Positions 3,097-51,475 of a stretch of DNA of 56,254 nucleotides are shown in pieces; positions within the stretch are counted from its first letter, which is position 1; each line of letters starts with the position of its first letter. A program made the translations under genes and the position numbers. The DNA is taken from NCBI GenBank assembly GCA_001002135.1, contig LCLP01000001.1, positions 427,114 to 483,367 of the forward strand. Reading direction: 5' to 3'. The notes under the pieces were generated by a model. The model saw only the letters and a list, made by a program, of their open reading frames with translations, had not been told where the DNA came from and did not search any database. This DNA comes from Candidatus Pacebacteria bacterium GW2011_GWA1_46_10. Its GTDB lineage: Bacteria; Patescibacteriota; Microgenomatia; UBA1400; PJMF01.

Positions 3097-4191
3097 ATGA
3101 AATTGTTTTCCGCCACCAGTCGAAAACTGAAAAAGACCGCTCTATTTCGGTCAGCAAGAAAAAACCAAGATTTGTTATTGTTTTTCTTACTGTTGTTGGT
3201 GGGACTCGTGAGCACGCTCTACGTGGAGTACAAATTTCAATACGCTCAATTTAAGTGGCTTGGTTGGCGGGTATTTGTCATTGCCGCCGCGATTGTTCAA
3301 TATGGAGCACTGCCTAAAAAGATTCACCAGAGGTATCAGCGACCATTACTATTTATTTTGGCGGCGATTGTGGTGTTTTACCTGATAAATTTGTTGGCTA
3401 ACCTAATTAATGTTTATCACTTGGAACGATTTCCGTCTTTGATGGGGTATTGTGAGCAGAATGAACAATTGTGCGACACGATAGTGCGAACGTTTTTCCA
3501 GTTTAAAGTCTACCGATTTGTCAGTTTGACTTCTTACTTTTTTATGTACGTGATTTTTTTGATCGTGGGCTTGCTTTTTTCACAACAAGTATATAAACGG
3601 ACCTTAAAGGTTTGGCGAAAGTTGCCCAAGATTCGGTTAAGAAGAGTAAAACTGAAGTATGTTTTACTGTTTTACTTTTTACTCGTTTACATTCTTATTC
3701 AGCAGCTTATTTCTGCTTTTTCTACCATTTCCAAGAAAATGGTTAAGATGTACTACACTTCAGCTTTACCCTATGAACAACGTTGGGAACAAGTGATGGG
3801 TGGACGGTTTTCATTTGGATGGATGAAGACTTACTCAGAGTTTGTTAACGCACATACACCGGAAAACTCAACTCTTCTGATTCCTGATATGGAGGCGCCT
3901 TGGGAAATGGAGGGCAACCCCGATTACTTACGTTGGTTTATTTACCCACGGAAAATGGTCCAAATGAAAGGCAGCAGTGAAGTTCCAAAAGAGGCTGATT
4001 ATGCGCTTTTGACTTATGGAGTATTTGGTTACTATAAACGAACTTTTCCAACATTTTTTATCGGTCAAGACCAGATTAATGAGATTATTTTTGTCAACCA
4101 AAATACCCTTGAAGTTACCAGACAACAGAACATCGACTACCATCCAGAAGAATATAAAAACGTTTGGGGGTTGATTGAGTTAAAGAAGTAA
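3097..4191 (+). CDS. Hypothetical membrane protein, copy A (paralog of 5544..6563)
   Basis: About 5 TMs plus a C-terminal soluble domain; shares GW..(Y/F)S.F, MEGN..Y.RWF.YPR and WGLIEL with copy B. Confidence 0.7.
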   Translation: MKLFSATSRKLKKTALFRSARKNQDLLLFFLLLLVGLVSTLYVEYKFQYAQFKWLGWRVFVIAAAIVQYGALPKKIHQRYQRPLLFILAAIVVFYLINLLANLINVYHLERFPSLMGYCEQNEQLCDTIVRTFFQFKVYRFVSLTSYFFMYVIFLIVGLLFSQQVYKRTLKVWRKLPKIRLRRVKLKYVLLFYFLLVYILIQQLISAFSTISKKMVKMYYTSALPYEQRWEQVMGGRFSFGWMKTYSEFVNAHTPENSTLLIPDMEAPWEMEGNPDYLRWFIYPRKMVQMKGSSEVPKEADYALLTYGVFGYYKRTFPTFFIGQDQINEIIFVNQNTLEVTRQQNIDYHPEEYKNVWGLIELKK

Positions 4192-4195
4192 AGCT

Positions 4196-5563
4196 ATGAC
4201 GTTACTCACAATTTTAGCCATCCAAGTATGTTTACTGATAGTGGGCTATTTGATGGCGGTGGTGTTTGGGGTAGCCCAAAAACTTGAAGCGCTAGCTGTT
4301 GCTTATTTACTCGGGTCAGGTGTAGTCTCGATTGTTTTCTTGCTCCTGCATTGGTTATTTGGTCTTAATTTGGATGCTACCAACTTTATTGCGTCAGTTT
4401 TTCTGACTGGAGGTCTGGCTTTTTTGATAACTAAACGCATGAAAAAAACAAAGGAGATGACTGATTTTCGACTAACCAAAACCAGTCGTGTTTTAAAAAG
4501 TCTGAGTGTCTTTGAAAAGAGTCTCCTAATCTTACTGTTCATTTTGGTTGGCTACACGATCATTGAGAACTATGTTTGGCCGGTGACTGCCTGGGATTCA
4601 CTGGCACTTTATGACTTTAGGGCCAGAGTGATGGCTGTTCACGGCAATATGGTGGAAGGTATTCAACTGGGATATTTCTTCCAGTATCCGCCCTTTACCA
4701 GTTTTCTTCATTTGTTCGGGTATGTGTTTGGTAATGAAAGAATTAAGCTGGCCTACTCGTTTATCTTTGCGTCATTACTCACAAGCTTTTTCGTGCTGCT
4801 GCGCCGGAAACAACCACTCTGGATTGCACTGCTAGGCACACTTTTTTTAGCGGTGGATAGTTATATTTTTGGTCATTCCACCGTGGCCTACACCAACTTA
4901 TCTTACGTCACGTTTTTGACGTTGGGACTGATTTATCTCCTGTTTTGGTTTCATGAGGGAGCGAAAAAGGATTTATTATTGGGAGCATTTTTGCTGGGAC
5001 TGAGTACTTGGGTACGTTCTTCCGAGCCTTTTTGGCTGGTGGGGATTGGGCTTATTTTGCTGCGGCTTTTTACCAAAAGAGAGCAGGTGTTCTTGGGACT
5101 ATTGATGATTTTCTTGATGGTTGGGATCAGTCGGTTGTGGGGGATTTTTGTTCAATCTCTTTATGCAGCTAATAACTTTTATCCGGCGGCCAGGCGTTCA
5201 CTGCTGGCGATCGTGTTGTCATCGAGGTTTTCGTTTGAGTTGTTGCTGTCACGCATCCAAGAAATTGGCGGTTATTTTTATTTGTACTCTTTGAATGTTT
5301 GGCGTTACCTACTCTTACCTTTTGGTTTTAGTTTCTACTATGACTGGCGCGCAAAAAATAAGCACAACCTTACTCTGGCGGTTATGGTAGGACTTCTCTT
5401 ATCAATGTTGTTTGGCGGGATTTTTATTTTCAGTCTTTATTATGAAACTTGGAACTTAATTACCGATTCACTGCAAAGAGTGAGCATGGTCTTCCCACCA
5501 TTGCTGATTTACTTCATTTTTAGTAGTCAGATTTGGAAACAACATGGTACTCAGCGTCGTTAG
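4196..5563 (+). CDS. GT-C (ArnT/PMT-like) glycosyltransferase, copy A
   Basis: WDSLALYDFRAR, YPP, WVRSSEPF motifs; many TMs. Confidence 0.75.
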   Translation: MTLLTILAIQVCLLIVGYLMAVVFGVAQKLEALAVAYLLGSGVVSIVFLLLHWLFGLNLDATNFIASVFLTGGLAFLITKRMKKTKEMTDFRLTKTSRVLKSLSVFEKSLLILLFILVGYTIIENYVWPVTAWDSLALYDFRARVMAVHGNMVEGIQLGYFFQYPPFTSFLHLFGYVFGNERIKLAYSFIFASLLTSFFVLLRRKQPLWIALLGTLFLAVDSYIFGHSTVAYTNLSYVTFLTLGLIYLLFWFHEGAKKDLLLGAFLLGLSTWVRSSEPFWLVGIGLILLRLFTKREQVFLGLLMIFLMVGISRLWGIFVQSLYAANNFYPAARRSLLAIVLSSRFSFELLLSRIQEIGGYFYLYSLNVWRYLLLPFGFSFYYDWRAKNKHNLTLAVMVGLLLSMLFGGIFIFSLYYETWNLITDSLQRVSMVFPPLLIYFIFSSQIWKQHGTQRR

Positions 5564-6563
5564 AAGAGATACCTTTCGCCTATTTTTAGTGCTCCTCTTT
5601 TTTTTGGGACTTTTAGTAAGTAATTTTATTTTTGAACTGGAAGGTGTTTTGTCTTACTCTCACCATTTGTTGTTAAGAAGTGTGCTGGCGCTGGCTGTTG
5701 TGAGTCTGTTTTTTTCAATGAGAAGAGTGACCCGCCAGAAACTCCAGCCAGTTATTAGAGTAGGCATCATCGTTTTGGCGGCGGCACTGTTCATAAACAT
5801 TTTCTTGAATATGATCAATGTTTATAGTCTCGGTGAAAGTTTTTGGGGGGTTGAGTTTTGTGCTGCTTTCGTGTCACTGTGTACTTTTGTTCAAACGGTG
5901 TTTTTTACGTTTAAATTATTTCGTTTCATTACTCTTTCCTCTTATTTCTTTTTACTGCCGTTGTTTACGTTGTTGATGATATATTTAGGCAACGATTTTG
6001 TTTTAGGAACTAAAAAATATGATTTACCAAGGAAATTTTTCTTGGCTTTAATTTTTTTGTTAATTTTACCCAACCTACTTAAAAGTTTTCACCGGGCTTA
6101 CTTATCCATCATTCAGAGCTATCAAATACGCCACGAAAACTTTTACGATCGCTTTGTCTTTAAAGAAGGTGGCCCGGGCTATTATGGCTGGATTAAGGTG
6201 TTTAGCAATTTTATTTTGGCTCAAACACCAACAAGCGCCAGTCTTTTAGTGCCGCCTCAAGCGATGGAGTATAAGATGGAGGGTAATACTAATTACTTCC
6301 GTTGGTTTTTATATCCTAGGCGACTGTATCATTTACAGAGTCTTGAGGCGGGATTGGAAAGTAACGAGTTGGATTATGTTGTCGTTTCTGGGGGTGAATG
6401 TGAGTCAAAACAGTGTGTGTGGCCAGATTTTGAGATTGATCAGGATACAATCAAGCGCATGATCTTTATTGACAGGGAAACACAGGGAGTGACGACAATA
6501 GAAGGTGAACCGTTTTTGCCTGAAAATTATCAAAATAAATGGGGCTTAATCGAGCTTCGATAA
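5544..6563 (+). CDS. Hypothetical membrane protein, copy B
   Basis: Paralog of 3097..4191 (MEGNTNYFRWFLYPR, WGLIELR). Confidence 0.7.
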   Translation: MVLSVVRRDTFRLFLVLLFFLGLLVSNFIFELEGVLSYSHHLLLRSVLALAVVSLFFSMRRVTRQKLQPVIRVGIIVLAAALFINIFLNMINVYSLGESFWGVEFCAAFVSLCTFVQTVFFTFKLFRFITLSSYFFLLPLFTLLMIYLGNDFVLGTKKYDLPRKFFLALIFLLILPNLLKSFHRAYLSIIQSYQIRHENFYDRFVFKEGGPGYYGWIKVFSNFILAQTPTSASLLVPPQAMEYKMEGNTNYFRWFLYPRRLYHLQSLEAGLESNELDYVVVSGGECESKQCVWPDFEIDQDTIKRMIFIDRETQGVTTIEGEPFLPENYQNKWGLIELR

Positions 6564-46708: not shown

Positions 46709-48784
46709 ATGACTGAGCAACCTCCCGTCCAGCCAAGTGCTTCTGCTCCCTCTCCTCAAAACGTTCACACTGTTTCACTTGATGACACTCCAACATCAGT
46801 GGAAACTCAACCGACAGCTAACCCAACTAAACCAACTAAACCAACTAAACCAACTTGGCAAACCCGTCTCATGGTAATTTTCCGACGAAAAAAAATAACC
46901 AAGAATAATACTGATAAACCAACTAAATTTAAACTCTCTAAACGAGGAAAAATTATCCTGGCTACCGTGGTTGGTTTATTAATGGTGATCAGTGTTTACA
47001 CCAGCATCGTCGGTCTGCGTTTTAAAACTCAAGCGGCAGAGGCTCAAACCCACGCCCGAGCAGCACTCGATGCTTTCAAAACGCAGAACTTACCTGGTGC
47101 CGAACAAGAGTTAATCGCCCTGCGAGATTCGATCGGCAACTTACAAAAAACCTATCGCTCACTGGTTTTTTATAACTTTCTACCCTTGACCCGCGGCTAT
47201 TACCAAGATGGTCAACACGCGCTTAATGCAGCCGATGCTGGTGTGGCGGCCGGCATTAAAGCCGCGCAAGAAATTACTCCCTATGCTGACGTGCTTGGTT
47301 TCCAAGGCGAAGGCTCATTTACTGGCGGGACGGCCGAAGATCGGATTCGGCTTATCATTGAAACACTCGATAAAATCATGCCGGCTTTCGATGAGATTGC
47401 CCAAAACCTCCAAACTGTTGATGCCGAAATCAGTGCCATCAACCCCCGTCACTATCCCAAAAGTTTTCGTGGCACACTGGTGAGAGAAAAAATCGCTGAC
47501 ACTCAAACCACATTGAGTAACGGCGTGAAGGGTTTTATCAGCTTTCGACCAGTCCTCGAACAACTGCCGGATTTAGCCGGCGGTAAAGGGCAACGAAAAA
47601 AGTATTTAATCTTGTTCCAAAACGACAACGAACTAAGACCAACTGGAGGATTCTTGACCGCCTATGCGGTGGTGTTTGTAGAAAACGGCAAAGTCACTCC
47701 AGAAAAATCTGATGACATTTATGAACTGGACCAAAAATTCACAAAACGTATTCCCATCCCTGACGCACTGGGTAAATATTTAACCACTGAGCGGTATTGG
47801 AACCTGCGAGACATGAACATTTCACCTGACTTTAAGACATCAATGGATCAATTTTTTACCCACTATCAAGAGGTGAGGGGAGAGCCGGGTGATATTAACG
47901 GCATTATTGCCGTCGACACCGTCGTACTGGCTGACTTACTCAAGATTCTTGGCCCGGTGCAAGTTGGTGGTAGCACCTTTAGCGCTGAGCCAGAAGATCG
48001 CTGTGATGGCTGTGCTCAAGTGGTCTATGCTTTGTCAGAAATCATCACGCGACCAACCCCATACTTGCGTGAAGACCGTAAGGGCATCCTTGGCCCATTG
48101 ATGCAAGCCACTCTTCAAAAAGCCTACAGTGCTCCCAAAGAGCTTTGGCCACAATTATTCGAGACCATGTGGCAAGAGCTTGAAGGCAGACACATTCAGC
48201 TCTACTTCTTGGCAGAATCGGCACAAACTGCCGCGGAAGCAGTCAACGGCGCCGGCCGACTCTTGCCGCCGGCAGAGGATCATGATTTTTTGGGGATCGT
48301 GGACGCCAACCTAGGTGGTGCTAAGTCGAATCTCTACACCGAGTACGAGGTCAAACAAACTGTTACTTCGCCGGAAAATGGTCAACTAACCAAAACTGTT
48401 GAGATTACCTACAAAAATACCCGCCGCGCTGACAACTGTAACCTCGAGGCTGGTCAATTGTGTCTGAATGGCACACTGCGCGACTGGTCGCGGCTCTACG
48501 TACCAAAAGGTGCCCAGTTAGTTGAAGCCCAAGGTTTCACGGCCGAGCCGAGTGTTTATGAAGAAAATGGCCTAACTGTCATTGATGGCTTTTTTATTCT
48601 CGAGCCTCTGGGCACTGCCAAGCTGCGCCTCACCTACACCGTACCGTATACCAACGAAGAAACTTACCGCATTCAACTCTGGAAACAAGGTGGTATCGAT
48701 CCCTTCACCACTCTCTTTGACGTCAACGGCGGCGAAGAACAGGTAATAGTGGCCAAAGACACCCTGGTTGAGATTCCGTTTTAA
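46709..48784 (+). CDS. DUF4012-like membrane-anchored surface protein
   Basis: Low-complexity N-terminus, one TM, helical region, YLILFQNDNELRPTGGF, RDMNISPDF, NLGGAKSN; start at 46703 or 46709. Confidence 0.85.
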   Translation: MTEQPPVQPSASAPSPQNVHTVSLDDTPTSVETQPTANPTKPTKPTKPTWQTRLMVIFRRKKITKNNTDKPTKFKLSKRGKIILATVVGLLMVISVYTSIVGLRFKTQAAEAQTHARAALDAFKTQNLPGAEQELIALRDSIGNLQKTYRSLVFYNFLPLTRGYYQDGQHALNAADAGVAAGIKAAQEITPYADVLGFQGEGSFTGGTAEDRIRLIIETLDKIMPAFDEIAQNLQTVDAEISAINPRHYPKSFRGTLVREKIADTQTTLSNGVKGFISFRPVLEQLPDLAGGKGQRKKYLILFQNDNELRPTGGFLTAYAVVFVENGKVTPEKSDDIYELDQKFTKRIPIPDALGKYLTTERYWNLRDMNISPDFKTSMDQFFTHYQEVRGEPGDINGIIAVDTVVLADLLKILGPVQVGGSTFSAEPEDRCDGCAQVVYALSEIITRPTPYLREDRKGILGPLMQATLQKAYSAPKELWPQLFETMWQELEGRHIQLYFLAESAQTAAEAVNGAGRLLPPAEDHDFLGIVDANLGGAKSNLYTEYEVKQTVTSPENGQLTKTVEITYKNTRRADNCNLEAGQLCLNGTLRDWSRLYVPKGAQLVEAQGFTAEPSVYEENGLTVIDGFFILEPLGTAKLRLTYTVPYTNEETYRIQLWKQGGIDPFTTLFDVNGGEEQVIVAKDTLVEIPF
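46823..46855 (+). repeat. 9-bp tandem repeat (CCAACTAAA) x3.7, encoding PTK repeats
   Basis: Seen directly; one further copy at 46919-46927. Confidence 0.9.
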
Positions 48785-48785
48785 G

Positions 48786-49328
48786 ATGAGTAAACCAAAA
48801 ACGTTTATGACTGAGGGCTTGGTGCTCAAGCGCACCAACGTCGGCGAAACTGATCGAGTGGTGACGTTTCTCACTCGCGATTTCGGTAAATTGGTGGGCG
48901 TTGCCAAGGGTATTCGCTCACTCAAATCCAGCCGACGAGCACACTTGGAACCCGGCAACTACGTTAAAATTTTCGGTGCTTATACCAAGTCACTGCCACT
49001 CATCACCCAAGCCACTCCACTAGAAGATAATGGCACTTCACGCCAATCGCTTGCCAATGTTCGTCGCCTTACTCAAATCTTAGAAGTTTTGGATCGGCTC
49101 TTTGTGGAAGGGGACACTGATCAGGTTGCTTACTTACGCGCGATTGAACTTCGCCGAGCGGTACTTAAACAAGCCTCCTTTAAAACTTTACAAAGCTTGC
49201 TTGGCAAGCTATTGGAACACTTAGGGTACCAAGATTATCGCCAAACCGCTCATAGCTCGGTGCTTGATTATGTAGCCGAAATCACTGAAAAAAAGATGAA
49301 GAGTTTTGATTACCTTCAAGTGAAATAA
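48786..49328 (+). CDS. recO: DNA repair protein RecO
   Basis: EGLVLKR..VGETDRVVTFLTRDFGKL..VAKGIR N-terminal OB motif; upstream of glyS. Confidence 0.9.
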   Translation: MSKPKTFMTEGLVLKRTNVGETDRVVTFLTRDFGKLVGVAKGIRSLKSSRRAHLEPGNYVKIFGAYTKSLPLITQATPLEDNGTSRQSLANVRRLTQILEVLDRLFVEGDTDQVAYLRAIELRRAVLKQASFKTLQSLLGKLLEHLGYQDYRQTAHSSVLDYVAEITEKKMKSFDYLQVK

Positions 49329-49387: not shown

Positions 49388-49527
49388 TGTAAAACACCAG
49401 TTTAACTAGCGATTGCCGCCAGTCAAAGCAAAGTGTTTTGCACCTTAATAAAATAGATCATGTCTCTTTTTGGACTGGTTGAATTTAATGCTCCCGACCT
49501 TAAAGGGGGCATTAAACAAACCAGTTC
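49388..49527 (+). ncRNA. Structured 5' leader or unknown cis-regulatory RNA (two long hairpins)
   Basis: TGTAAAACAC(49388-97)/GTGTTTTGCA(49433-42); GGACTGGTT(49472-80)/AACCAGTTC(49519-27) enclosing TTTAATGCTCCC/GGGGGCATTAAA. Confidence 0.5.
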
Positions 49528-49540
49528 TGAGGAGAAAACC

Positions 49541-49846
49541 ATGATCTACCACATACTTTTTACAGCGTTTCTCGTAGGCCTTGTCCTCTATGTAACGTAC
49601 TACTTGGTGGGCAAAACCTACAAATCATCCAGACAAAAAAGTCTAGGAGAATGGCTGGTAGCACTACTCGTGCTTGCCGGCTTTGGCTATAGCTGTTGGG
49701 ACGTATGGCTGAGGTCAATTCGCTTCTTCGGTGCCCCTTGGGGGTATGCACTGGATGTTTTTTGGGCGATGACCGCAGTAGGGATTCTCTTGGGCGTGAG
49801 TTTTTTCAGAGAAATACTTCGACAGAAACCTCACTCAGATGAGTAA
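49541..49846 (+). CDS. Small orphan 3-TM membrane protein (101 aa)
   Basis: GAGGAG RBS at 49529-34 before ATG 49541; three hydrophobic segments; own promoter and terminator. Confidence 0.75.
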   Translation: MIYHILFTAFLVGLVLYVTYYLVGKTYKSSRQKSLGEWLVALLVLAGFGYSCWDVWLRSIRFFGAPWGYALDVFWAMTAVGILLGVSFFREILRQKPHSDE

Positions 49847-49884
49847 AAACTGTCGAAGAAATCAAAACCCAAGTGAACCCACCC

Positions 49885-49912
49885 AAAACCGCCGGTTTAC
49901 CCGGCGGTTTTT
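49885..49912 (+). terminator. Rho-independent terminator (possibly bidirectional)
   Basis: AAAA-CCGCCGG-TTTAC-CCGGCGG-TTTTT. Confidence 0.88.
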
Positions 49913-49916
49913 CTTG

Positions 49917-49945
49917 TTGCAAAGCATTTTAATTGAAAATACAAT
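49917..49945 (+). promoter_or_regulatory. glyS promoter
   Basis: TTGCAA-N17-TACAAT; predicted +1 near 49951-49952, at the base of the first leader hairpin. Confidence 0.72.
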
Positions 49946-49951
49946 TAACTC

Positions 49952-50077
49952 GCACTCTTTCGCCCTTGGCCAGCGAACTAAGTGGAGTGCACAAATTAAA
50001 GAGAGCCCCATTTGGGGAATTAGGGTGGAACCGCCCGGCAGGGTCCCTCGCAAGCAGACACTTGCAGGGATTTTTTT
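49952..50077 (+). ncRNA. Glycine T-box riboswitch (transcription attenuator), ultra-compact
   Basis: T-box AATTAGGGTGGAACCGC (50018-50034) with UGGA bulge; antiterminator AGGG/CCCT and GCCC/GGGT; overlapping terminator; stem III CCCC-ATTT-GGGG; directly upstream of glyS. Confidence 0.85.
50044..50077 (+). terminator. T-box attenuator terminator
   Basis: TCCCT-c-GCAAG-cagaca-CTTGC-AGGGA-TTTTTTT. Confidence 0.85.
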
Positions 50078-50089
50078 GTAAAAGTACCT

Positions 50090-51475
50090 ATGAATCAACC
50101 AACCTTAAACGAAATTGTGGCCCTAGCCAAACGACGAGGGTTTGTTTTTCCAGGGTCAGAAATCTACGGCGGCTTGGCTAATACGTACGACTTTGGACCG
50201 TTGGGCACGCAGCTACTGCGCAACATCACTAATTACTGGTGGGATTTTTTCGTCACCCGCCGGCATGACATGTTCGGCCTGGATAGCTCCATCTTGATGA
50301 GTCCTAAGGTCTGGGAGGCCTCCGGCCACACCCAGAGTTTTACTGATGCCTTGATTGACTGTCGTCATTGCCACACTCGGATGCGCGCTGATCATTTAAT
50401 CGAGCAGTTCTTTGAGAAAAAAGGCAAACCAATCAAAGTAGAGGGGAAGAGTGCCGAAGAATTAACCCAAATCATTCGTGAAAACCAAATTCCTTGTCCC
50501 GCTTGTGGTAAACATGATTGGACTGACGCTCGGGAATTTAATCTGCTGTTTGAGACTCATATTGGCATCGTCGAGGAAAATCAATCGCTCGCATATCTGC
50601 GCGGTGAGATCGCCCAAGGCATGTTTGTCAACTTCAAGAACGTCCTCAACACCATGCAGCCTAAACTGCCATTTGGTATTGCTCAAGCCGGCAAAGCCTT
50701 CCGTAATGAAATTACTTTGGGGAACTTTATTTTCCGTACTCTCGAGTTCAACTTAGCCGAGTTTGAGTACTTCTTTGATCCAATCAATCAAAAGTGGGAA
50801 GAATTGTTTGAACAGTGGCAACAAACGATGTTCGAATTTGCTCTTTCACTCGGTTTCAGTGAAAAAAAACTGAGGTGGCGCGTCCACACTGATGAAGAAC
50901 GCTCACATTACTCCACCAGAACCGAAGACTTAGATTATGAATTTCCGTTCGGCTTCAAGGAGATGTTTGGTCTGGCATATCGGACTGATTATGACCTTAA
51001 AAACCACATGGAAAAATCAGGTGTCGACCTCAAGTACACTGACCCACAAAATCCTAAGCGCAAGTTTATTCCCCATGTCGTGGAACCCACATTTGGCTTA
51101 AATAGAATTTTCCTGGCGCTCTTAAGTGAGTGTTACACCAAAGAAAAAGATCGCACCTACCTCAAGTTACCAACCCAATTAGCGCCATTTAAAGTGGCTG
51201 TTTTCCCCTTGGTAAAAAACAAACCAGCACTCGTCAATAAAGCCAGGGCGGTCTATGAACTCCTGCGTCAATACTGGGCTACCGACTGGGACGACAGGGG
51301 CAACATCGGCAAACGATACCTGTCACAAGATGAAATCGGCACGCCGTATTGCGTCACCATCGATTATCAAACCCTGGAAGACAACACCGTCACTTTACGC
51401 GACCGCAACACCACGACACAACAACGCTTGTCGGTCGAACAACTTGAGCCACATTTGGCCCACGTGTTAGGCTAA
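50090..51475 (+). CDS. glyS: Glycine--tRNA ligase (alpha2 type)
   Basis: KRRGFVFPGSEIYGG, YDFGPLG, WEASGH, LRGEIAQGMF, FRNEI, PHVVEP, IGKRY..QDEIGTP. Confidence 0.96.
   Translation: MNQPTLNEIVALAKRRGFVFPGSEIYGGLANTYDFGPLGTQLLRNITNYWWDFFVTRRHDMFGLDSSILMSPKVWEASGHTQSFTDALIDCRHCHTRMRADHLIEQFFEKKGKPIKVEGKSAEELTQIIRENQIPCPACGKHDWTDAREFNLLFETHIGIVEENQSLAYLRGEIAQGMFVNFKNVLNTMQPKLPFGIAQAGKAFRNEITLGNFIFRTLEFNLAEFEYFFDPINQKWEELFEQWQQTMFEFALSLGFSEKKLRWRVHTDEERSHYSTRTEDLDYEFPFGFKEMFGLAYRTDYDLKNHMEKSGVDLKYTDPQNPKRKFIPHVVEPTFGLNRIFLALLSECYTKEKDRTYLKLPTQLAPFKVAVFPLVKNKPALVNKARAVYELLRQYWATDWDDRGNIGKRYLSQDEIGTPYCVTIDYQTLEDNTVTLRDRNTTTQQRLSVEQLEPHLAHVLG

Follow-up and report, generated by a model that had tools for sequence, protein, structure and literature searches.

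In the 56,254-nucleotide (nt) stretch of the Candidatus Pacebacteria bacterium GW2011_GWA1_46_10 genome analyzed here (the window), glyS, the gene for glycine--tRNA ligase (GlyRS), is preceded by a leader that is probably a transcription attenuator sensing tRNA-Gly and built on a reduced T-box plan. Comparison with related leaders suggests that the window copy is a further reduced version, devoid of kink-turn (K-turn), of a T-box variant that is conserved and widespread and has apparently not been catalogued. The element would be a variant of the T-box and not a new kind of system, and the function proposed for it rests on comparison. Its parts, and the gene that it presumably regulates, are the following.

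49917-49945, + strand: promoter-like site (-35 box 49917-49922, 17-nt spacer, -10 box 49940-49945), from a consensus scan, 9 of 12 matches.
49952-49990, + strand: short Stem I of 39 nt, from the sequence and the ViennaRNA fold (-12.6 kcal/mol).
49964-49972, + strand: apical specifier loop of 9 nt, with the glycine codon GGC at 49968-49970, a U before it and C and A after it.
49991-50005, + strand: A-rich single-stranded linker of 15 nt, whose end is the purine-rich flank 5' of Stem III, from sequence and fold.
50006-50019, + strand: Stem III (50006-50009 with 50014-50017; 4 base pairs (bp), 4-nt loop) and the conserved AA at 50018-50019, from the Rfam alignment.
50022-50048, + strand: antiterminator, with helices A1 (50022-25 with 50045-48) and A2 (50033-36 with 50041-44), from the Rfam alignment (-8.9 kcal/mol).
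50044-50077, + strand: intrinsic terminator with a 5+5 bp stem, one bulged C, a 6-nt loop and T7, from a terminator scan and the fold (-13.3 kcal/mol).
50090-51475, + strand: glyS, dimeric-type glycine--tRNA ligase (NF003211, E 1.9e-181; TIGR00389, E 1.8e-154), the regulated gene.

Stem I consists of an outer helix (49952-49957 with 49985-49990) and an inner helix (49959-49963 with 49973-49977), between which a 2-nt bulge on the 5' side (UU) lies opposite a 7-nt internal loop on the 3' side (49978-49984), with no tandem G-A. K-turn, AG bulge and distal loop are all missing from it, and it terminates at the specifier loop; its inner helix aligns with the covarying helix of the 65 leaders described below. 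The specifier, first placed in this analysis, would be the GGC of this apical loop. The linker is unpaired in both the minimum-free-energy and the centroid folds, with no Stem II and no pseudoknot, and the two flanks that define Stem III in T-boxes, 5'-RRRxG and 3'-AA (available part of PMC11404447), are both present (50001-50019). Between helices A1 and A2 lies the 7-nt T-box bulge, of the UGGNACC type (50026-50032); the T-box 13-mer referred to below is 50022-50034. Positions 50044-50048 are common to the two competing structures, the 3' strand of the antiterminator being the 5' strand of the terminator. The terminator, made of a hairpin (50044-50070) and seven T (50071-50077), ends 12 nt before the ATG (50090) and is more stable than the antiterminator (-13.3 against -8.9 kcal/mol). 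Transcription probably starts near 49952, which gives a leader of about 126 nt to the end of the T-run. The ViennaRNA minimum-free-energy folds of 49945-50089 and of this 126-nt leader both give Stem I, Stem III and the terminator.

An earlier note on this DNA had described a promoter TTGCAA-N17-TACAAT, a 39-nt Stem I made of GCACTC (49952-57) and GAGTGC (49985-90) with an inner TTCGC/GCGAA, an A-rich linker without Stem II, a small Stem III, the T-box 13-mer, an antiterminator and, mutually exclusive with it, a U7 terminator lying 12 nt ahead of the glyS ATG, with about 126 nt of leader up to the terminator. Every one of these parts was recovered at the same positions; the specifier codon was not among them. 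The note had also matched the UGGA of the bulge with the UCCA end of a tRNA-Gly carrying U at the discriminator position, 73. Indeed, the genome encodes three tRNA-Gly genes, with anticodons GCC, CCC and UCC, and all three have U73, to which the A of the UGGA bulge is complementary; the pairing itself is predicted.

The window shows the features by which T-boxes are recognized: an antiterminator with a UGGNACC bulge, a terminator that shares one of its strands, the Stem III flanks and a codon that matches the gene. Nevertheless, at gathering score Rfam finds nothing in the 56-kb window (1-56254), neither the T-box model RF00230, whose threshold is 93 bits, nor any other family, and the window has no tRNA genes. 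In E-value mode, RF00230 matches 49993-50048 only, with model positions 151-216 of 219 (23 bits, E 0.0029). This alignment comprises Stem III and the antiterminator, with none of the window placed 5' of model position 151, much as the earlier note had predicted for an Infernal search. The glyS leader is the sole T-box-like match in the 920-kb genome.

The mechanism suggested by these parts is as follows. Transcription would begin a few bases after the -10 box, and the first 39 nt would fold as the short Stem I, whose apical loop would present GGC in the manner of an anticodon loop, with a U on the 5' side, usually a purine on the 3' side and two bases before the helix. The anticodon of uncharged tRNA-Gly(GCC) would pair with this GGC, and the free UCCA-3' end of the same tRNA with the UGGA of the T-box bulge. 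The tRNA, together with Stem III, would hold the antiterminator against the stronger terminator and let RNA polymerase read into glyS, while glycyl-tRNA, unable to fill the bulge, would leave the terminator to form and transcription to stop at T7. The tRNA would thus be held at two places only, its anticodon and its 3' end, with no elbow platform, no Stem II and presumably no helper. Two tRNAs with complementary anticodons bind each other far more tightly than expected of three base pairs. In the available passages of PMC7583486, the strong GGC:GCC duplex is argued to be the reason why glycine T-boxes manage without Stem II. Most likely, the design arose from a glycine T-box of the glyQS kind by removal of everything above the specifier loop.

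The same arrangement recurs throughout the order to which this genome belongs. Among the GlyRS loci of relatives, 12 of 29 have the T-box 13-mer upstream of glyS, and when any fourth bulge base is allowed the 13-mer is found in 107 of the 286 genomes of the order, a tally that counts genome G163, whose sequence was not otherwise used. The distinct TGGA instances fetched in the order number 71: 62 lie directly before GlyRS according to tblastn, one more is followed by a GlyRS N-terminus at the end of its contig, and three are good leaders followed by another open reading frame (ORF). The other five were discarded as chance matches inside coding regions (L053, L074, L075, L078 and L088). Compact leaders, the window included, amount to 65, of which 61 stand directly before GlyRS (tblastn). 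At two loci, L085 and L092, a compact glycine leader is followed by a short unrelated ORF and not by glyS; an insertion may have occurred there between leader and gene. One leader of the same order, L098 (genome G276, positions 56-232), is of the canonical glycine type, its Stem I being complete; it stands before glyS and scores 97.2 bits in Rfam; the long and the compact forms therefore coexist among relatives.

Alignment A2 comprises the 65 compact leaders, each running from 22 nt ahead of the codon through the antiterminator. The GG of the codon is invariant, the triplet being GGC in 63 leaders and GGA in two; a U precedes it in 64, and it is followed by A in 57 and by C in six, the window included. 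Wherever the helix was found automatically, the codon and the 3' strand of that helix lie exactly two bases apart; the hairpin script missed six leaders, which have mismatched stems, and misplaced three, and these nine were positioned by their first TGG(C/A)(A/G) match. The apical helix is paired in 84.6% of its cells, with changes on both sides in each of its three pairs. For the 14 tested pairs together, the paired fraction of cells is 86.0%, compared to 73.6% for shuffles and 35-55% with slid partners, and the covariation score is 0.337, against 0.132 in shuffles (none of 500 reaches 0.337) and at most 0.083 with slid partners. MAFFT aligned the 5' strand of Stem III and the lower part of helix A2 inconsistently, and these pairs were therefore excluded from the count; Stem III was scored by a script. 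The two leaders with a GGA specifier are L032 (genome G041) and L079 (genome G216). BLAST with the tRNA-Gly of the window genome found the CCC and UCC isoacceptors and no GCC in G041, which is 88% complete; in G216, which is 99% complete, tRNA-Gly GCC is present and the same query found no UCC.

Below the apical helix, 31 of the 65 leaders carry tandem GA opposite GA, and all 31 also form at least three of the four outer-helix pairs, which is the signature of a K-turn. The same positions hold Watson-Crick pairs in 12 leaders and something else in 22, the window among the latter. In the genera nearest to the window, the specifier hairpin is followed by an extra hairpin, ahead of the outer helix's 3' strand, where the window has only its 7-nt internal loop. 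A Stem III helix of at least 5 bp is found in 53 of the 65 leaders, compared to 29% of shuffles; 45 have the RRRxG flank ahead of the best helix for Stem III, the script having chosen a wrong, longer helix in some rows, including that of the window, and AA follows Stem III in all 65. Equally invariant, in all 65, are the antiterminator's 3' strand and the T-box 13-mer. A terminator that overlaps the antiterminator, reuses its strand and ends in a T-run was detected in 49 leaders by a crude test, which stops at the first T-run and so under-counts. Two leaders of one genus, L046 and L104, have no T-run, and a purine-rich stretch just ahead of the start codon of glyS could pair there with the antiterminator's 3' strand; this suggests translational control and a switch of mode within the family.

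The position of the promoter is conserved as well. In 47 of the 56 leaders with enough upstream sequence, a -10-like hexamer, with at least five of six consensus bases, has its end 12-33 nt ahead of the codon, while 14.1 would be expected from shuffles, and the median distance from -10 box to codon is 23 nt. From this placement we infer that the transcripts start just before the short Stem I; taken alone, the promoter scan of the window is weak evidence, giving two such sites per 1 kb against 0.8 expected. An upstream start that would allow a canonical Stem I, a case raised in the earlier note, was rejected on three grounds: the placement of the -10 boxes in these 47 leaders, the lack of any Rfam alignment to Stem I and the terminator that precedes the leader:

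49885-49913, + strand: intrinsic terminator of the preceding gene (49460-49846), from a terminator scan, with an 11-bp stem containing 7 G-C pairs and a T-rich tail.

Its hairpin (49885-49911) is the 5' boundary of the glyS leader. Since the preceding gene has its own terminator ending at about 49913, no room is left for a canonical Stem I upstream.

A covariance model, R1, was built from the 64 relatives with the window left out; its E-values are rough. R1 matches the window at 49946-50048, over its full length and with the specifier hairpin aligned (62.9 bits, E 8.5e-13). This glyS leader is its only match in the genome, and the next best score in the window is 12.1 bits. The covariation alignment of relatives that the earlier note had in mind is thus in hand, with 65 leaders, and a model that had not seen the window recovers it. 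The canonical leader L098 scores only 38.2 bits with R1.

The family extends beyond the order. In a sample of 401 genomes drawn evenly from the phylum, the pattern codon-gap-13-mer gave six matches, five of them outside the order; four of these five score 55.6-66 bits with R1, and L105 only 38.7. A scan of 185,579 species genomes for the commonest loop sequence combined with the 13-mer yielded at least 120 stretches. Among the matches listed, R1 matched 67 of the 86 loci tested and gave nothing at E <=0.001 for 19. The R1-matched loci listed include 16 on contigs titled Chloroflexota (Anaerolineae, Ardenticatenaceae, Chloroflexia, Bellilinea, Promineifilaceae), nine titled uncultured Bacilli, Tenericutes or Mycoplasmatota, and three titled Saccharibacteria; these 28 score 54-71 bits, and most of the other R1-matched loci listed are titled Microgenomates lineages or "Patescibacteria group". 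The lineages are those of the deposited titles, which are not always reliable, since the names Pseudomonadales and Limisphaerales were met on contigs apparently of the window's order. Again among the matches listed, there are 125 instances of the pattern, 73 of them with the hairpin, and GlyRS follows within 700 nt in 65 of these 73. The leaders outside the order are built on the same plan, with a -10 box, the K-turn signature, a helix of 3-5 bp, the same loop, a short linker, Stem III, antiterminator and terminator. R1 matches on contigs titled Chloroflexota, Bacilli and Saccharibacteria mean that the family is not specific to the candidate phyla radiation; the design, which the earlier note had placed in a genome like those of that radiation, is not peculiar to such genomes.

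With RF00230, those compact glycine leaders of the order that were scored reach 29-46 bits; outside the order, six of eight tested score 34-58 bits and the other two miss E 0.001. All this is far under the Rfam threshold, and T-box control of glyS in the groups that carry these leaders is therefore currently missed in annotation by the Rfam model at gathering score. Some loci carry compact glycine leaders in tandem on the minus strand, L121 at 4161-4283 and 4323-4443 and L160 at 5599-5713 and 5765-5881, and L131 has two R1 matches; the contigs of these three loci are titled Gottesmanbacteria and Daviesbacteria.

A second set of leaders bears on the assignment of the specifier. In the same order, leaders with a UGGU bulge (L034, L035, L038, L048; also L045) have a promoter-proximal hairpin whose stem covaries. 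The loop is of 7 nt, with CGC at loop positions 3-5, in L034, L035 and L038, and of 6 nt in L048; the T-box 13-mer lies at about locus position 1501 in these four, and a terminator with a T-run is present. The L038 leader precedes argH (argininosuccinate lyase, TIGR00838, E 3.7e-103), and that of L034 lies directly before a tRNA-Arg(UCU) gene, a case of a T-box ahead of a tRNA gene. These arginine leaders resemble the compact glycine leaders in their short promoter-proximal hairpin, in the position of the codon in the loop, in the 13-mer and in the terminator, and all of them are under the Rfam threshold (29-52 bits). They differ by their CGC codon, their UGGU bulge and an additional 100 nt or so of RNA separating the hairpin from Stem III, which may be a Stem II domain. 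A CGC loop before arginine genes and a GGC loop before GlyRS show that, in two independent sets, the triplet corresponds to the amino acid of the gene downstream. The arginine leaders would then be cases of an ultrashort type of Stem I in transcriptional T-boxes that do not belong to ileS.

Several points weigh against taking the glyS leader for a working attenuator. Three congeneric genomes (L003, L004, L005) have no leader, glyS coming directly after the upstream gene, and the leader is therefore dispensable. (In L003 and L004, the glyS start codon is within about 10 nt of the stop codon of the upstream gene.) The window copy is itself atypical: it has C in place of the conserved purine after the codon, like six of the 65, and it has no K-turn, compared to the tandem GA signature of 31 members. 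Its folding energy has a z-score of -1.75, 8 of 200 shuffles folding equally well; this is not significant, and folding energy was therefore not taken as support; that the element is no product of chance is argued from its conservation. The covariation score was obtained on an alignment anchored on the codon by start points of our own choosing, and the sequences in it are related, so that the shuffle controls are inflated. The terminator test is failed by 16 of the 65 leaders, some of which were halted at an earlier T-run while two look translational. Finally, in the available passages of PMC7583486, transcriptional T-boxes are said to need the elbow-binding motif and, in general, the long Stem I, and a truncated Stem I has hardly any affinity for tRNA unless Stem II is there.

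This last point is also the starting point of an alternative in which the RNA alone binds too weakly and the compact leader needs a helper, either a protein, for example a K-turn binder of the L7Ae family, or an unrecognised RNA contact. Besides the poor binding of a truncated Stem I, the same passages of PMC7583486 state that transcriptional T-boxes need fast capture of the tRNA elbow and that K-turn-binding proteins may assist T-boxes; the K-turn signature of 31 of the 65 leaders points the same way, as does the extra hairpin that some lineages have beside the specifier hairpin (L054-L063). However, the window copy has neither the K-turn nor the extra hairpin, and the occurrence of the design in three or more distant groups speaks against a factor confined to one lineage. 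We consider such a dependence rather unlikely.

It is also improbable that the leader is a decayed T-box, in which Stem I has been truncated and the identity of the tRNA goes unread, leaving a constitutive partial terminator or a response to any tRNA with U73. The absence of the leader from the three same-genus genomes and the missing K-turn and purine of the window copy would be understandable in this case, and the canonical long Stem I of L098 (97.2 bits) in the same order indicates that truncation did occur in the lineage. But an invariant GG(C/A) in a loop carried by a covarying stem, over 65 leaders, would not be kept by a relic. The same loop on contigs titled Chloroflexota and Bacilli, and the parallel CGC loop before arginine genes, speak against decay as well.

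Control of translation or of mRNA stability, instead of transcription termination, is highly improbable for this leader: although L046 and L104, with no T-run and an antiterminator strand able to pair before the start codon, suggest that the family can switch mode, the terminator of the window is of textbook form (stem of 10 bp, then seven T), stops 12 nt short of the ATG and masks no ribosome-binding site, and 49 of the 65 members have such terminators.

As to the surroundings of the proposed attenuator, the intergenic stretch 49847-50089 lies between an ORF of 128 amino acids, of unknown family, and glyS, both on the same strand. This ORF (49460-49846) and the leader sit between recO (48768-49328) and glyS.

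A family with neither an elbow platform nor Stem II that nevertheless ends in terminators is a natural test of the smallest RNA able to read both the identity and the charging of a tRNA while transcription proceeds. If the proposal is right, the window copy, with its 126 nt or so, would be among the smallest natural T-boxes, and so small a sensor, touching its tRNA at two points, would be a convenient part for engineering. A larger claim is that the family makes a fifth structural class of T-boxes, a widespread (Microgenomates and other Patescibacteria, Chloroflexota, some uncultured Bacilli), mostly transcriptional, two-contact tRNA-Gly riboswitch without elbow platform or Stem II that is missed by Rfam at gathering score. 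Its two contacts would be a kissing interaction of the anticodon with the apical loop and the pairing of the NCCA end. This we regard as an evenly balanced proposition.

A scheme of four T-box classes was put forward in 2023 (PMC10482949, of which parts were available). Class I has a long Stem I with an elbow-binding motif, an internal-loop specifier and a Stem II domain. Class II, represented by glyQS and specific for glycine, has the Stem I of class I and an internal-loop specifier, followed by a single-stranded linker. Class III, represented by ileS, has a short Stem I without elbow-binding motif, a specifier in an apical loop of 5-6 nt and a required Stem II. In class IV, Stem I is intermediate and without elbow-binding motif, the specifier is in a side bulge and Stem II is as in class III. 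The glyS leader joins a Stem I like that of class III to a linker like that of class II, which none of the four classes does as they are set out in those parts. The available passages of a 2023 preprint have all ultrashort T-boxes regulating ileS, and in those of a 2026 review ultrashort leaders are still described solely for translational ileS. In the literature searched, which also includes passages of PMC7778990, PMC11297988, PMC5622331 and PMC12990946 and leaves some key older papers outside its scope, no description was found of a glycine or transcriptional T-box that presents its specifier in an apical loop and lacks Stem II, nor any paper on T-boxes in Patescibacteria. The earlier note had spoken of a minimal, possibly undescribed class: the ultrashort Stem I, the absence of Stem II and attenuation are supported, and "undescribed" holds within that literature.

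Set beside class II, as known from the glyQS leaders of Bacillus subtilis and Geobacillus, the glyS leader shares the GGC specifier, the amino acid, the UGGA that matches U73, the linker in place of Stem II, the purine flanks of Stem III and the competition of an antiterminator with an intrinsic terminator; 31 of the 65 family members also share the K-turn below the specifier. It differs in having nothing of Stem I above the specifier, neither AG bulge nor distal loop, and hence no elbow-binding platform, in presenting the specifier in an apical and not an internal loop, and, in the window, in lacking the basal K-turn. With class III, the actinobacterial ileS leaders of Mycobacterium and Nocardia as described in the passages available, it has in common a short Stem I, an apical specifier, the absence of an elbow-binding motif and, presumably, a tRNA held at the anticodon and the NCCA end only. 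The ileS RNAs, however, are specific for isoleucine, act on translation by sequestering the ribosome-binding site and need a Stem II with an S-turn and a IIA/B pseudoknot, whereas the leaders described here are specific for glycine and have a terminator, a linker without Stem II (15 nt in the window) and a specifier loop of 7-9 nt instead of 5-6 nt.

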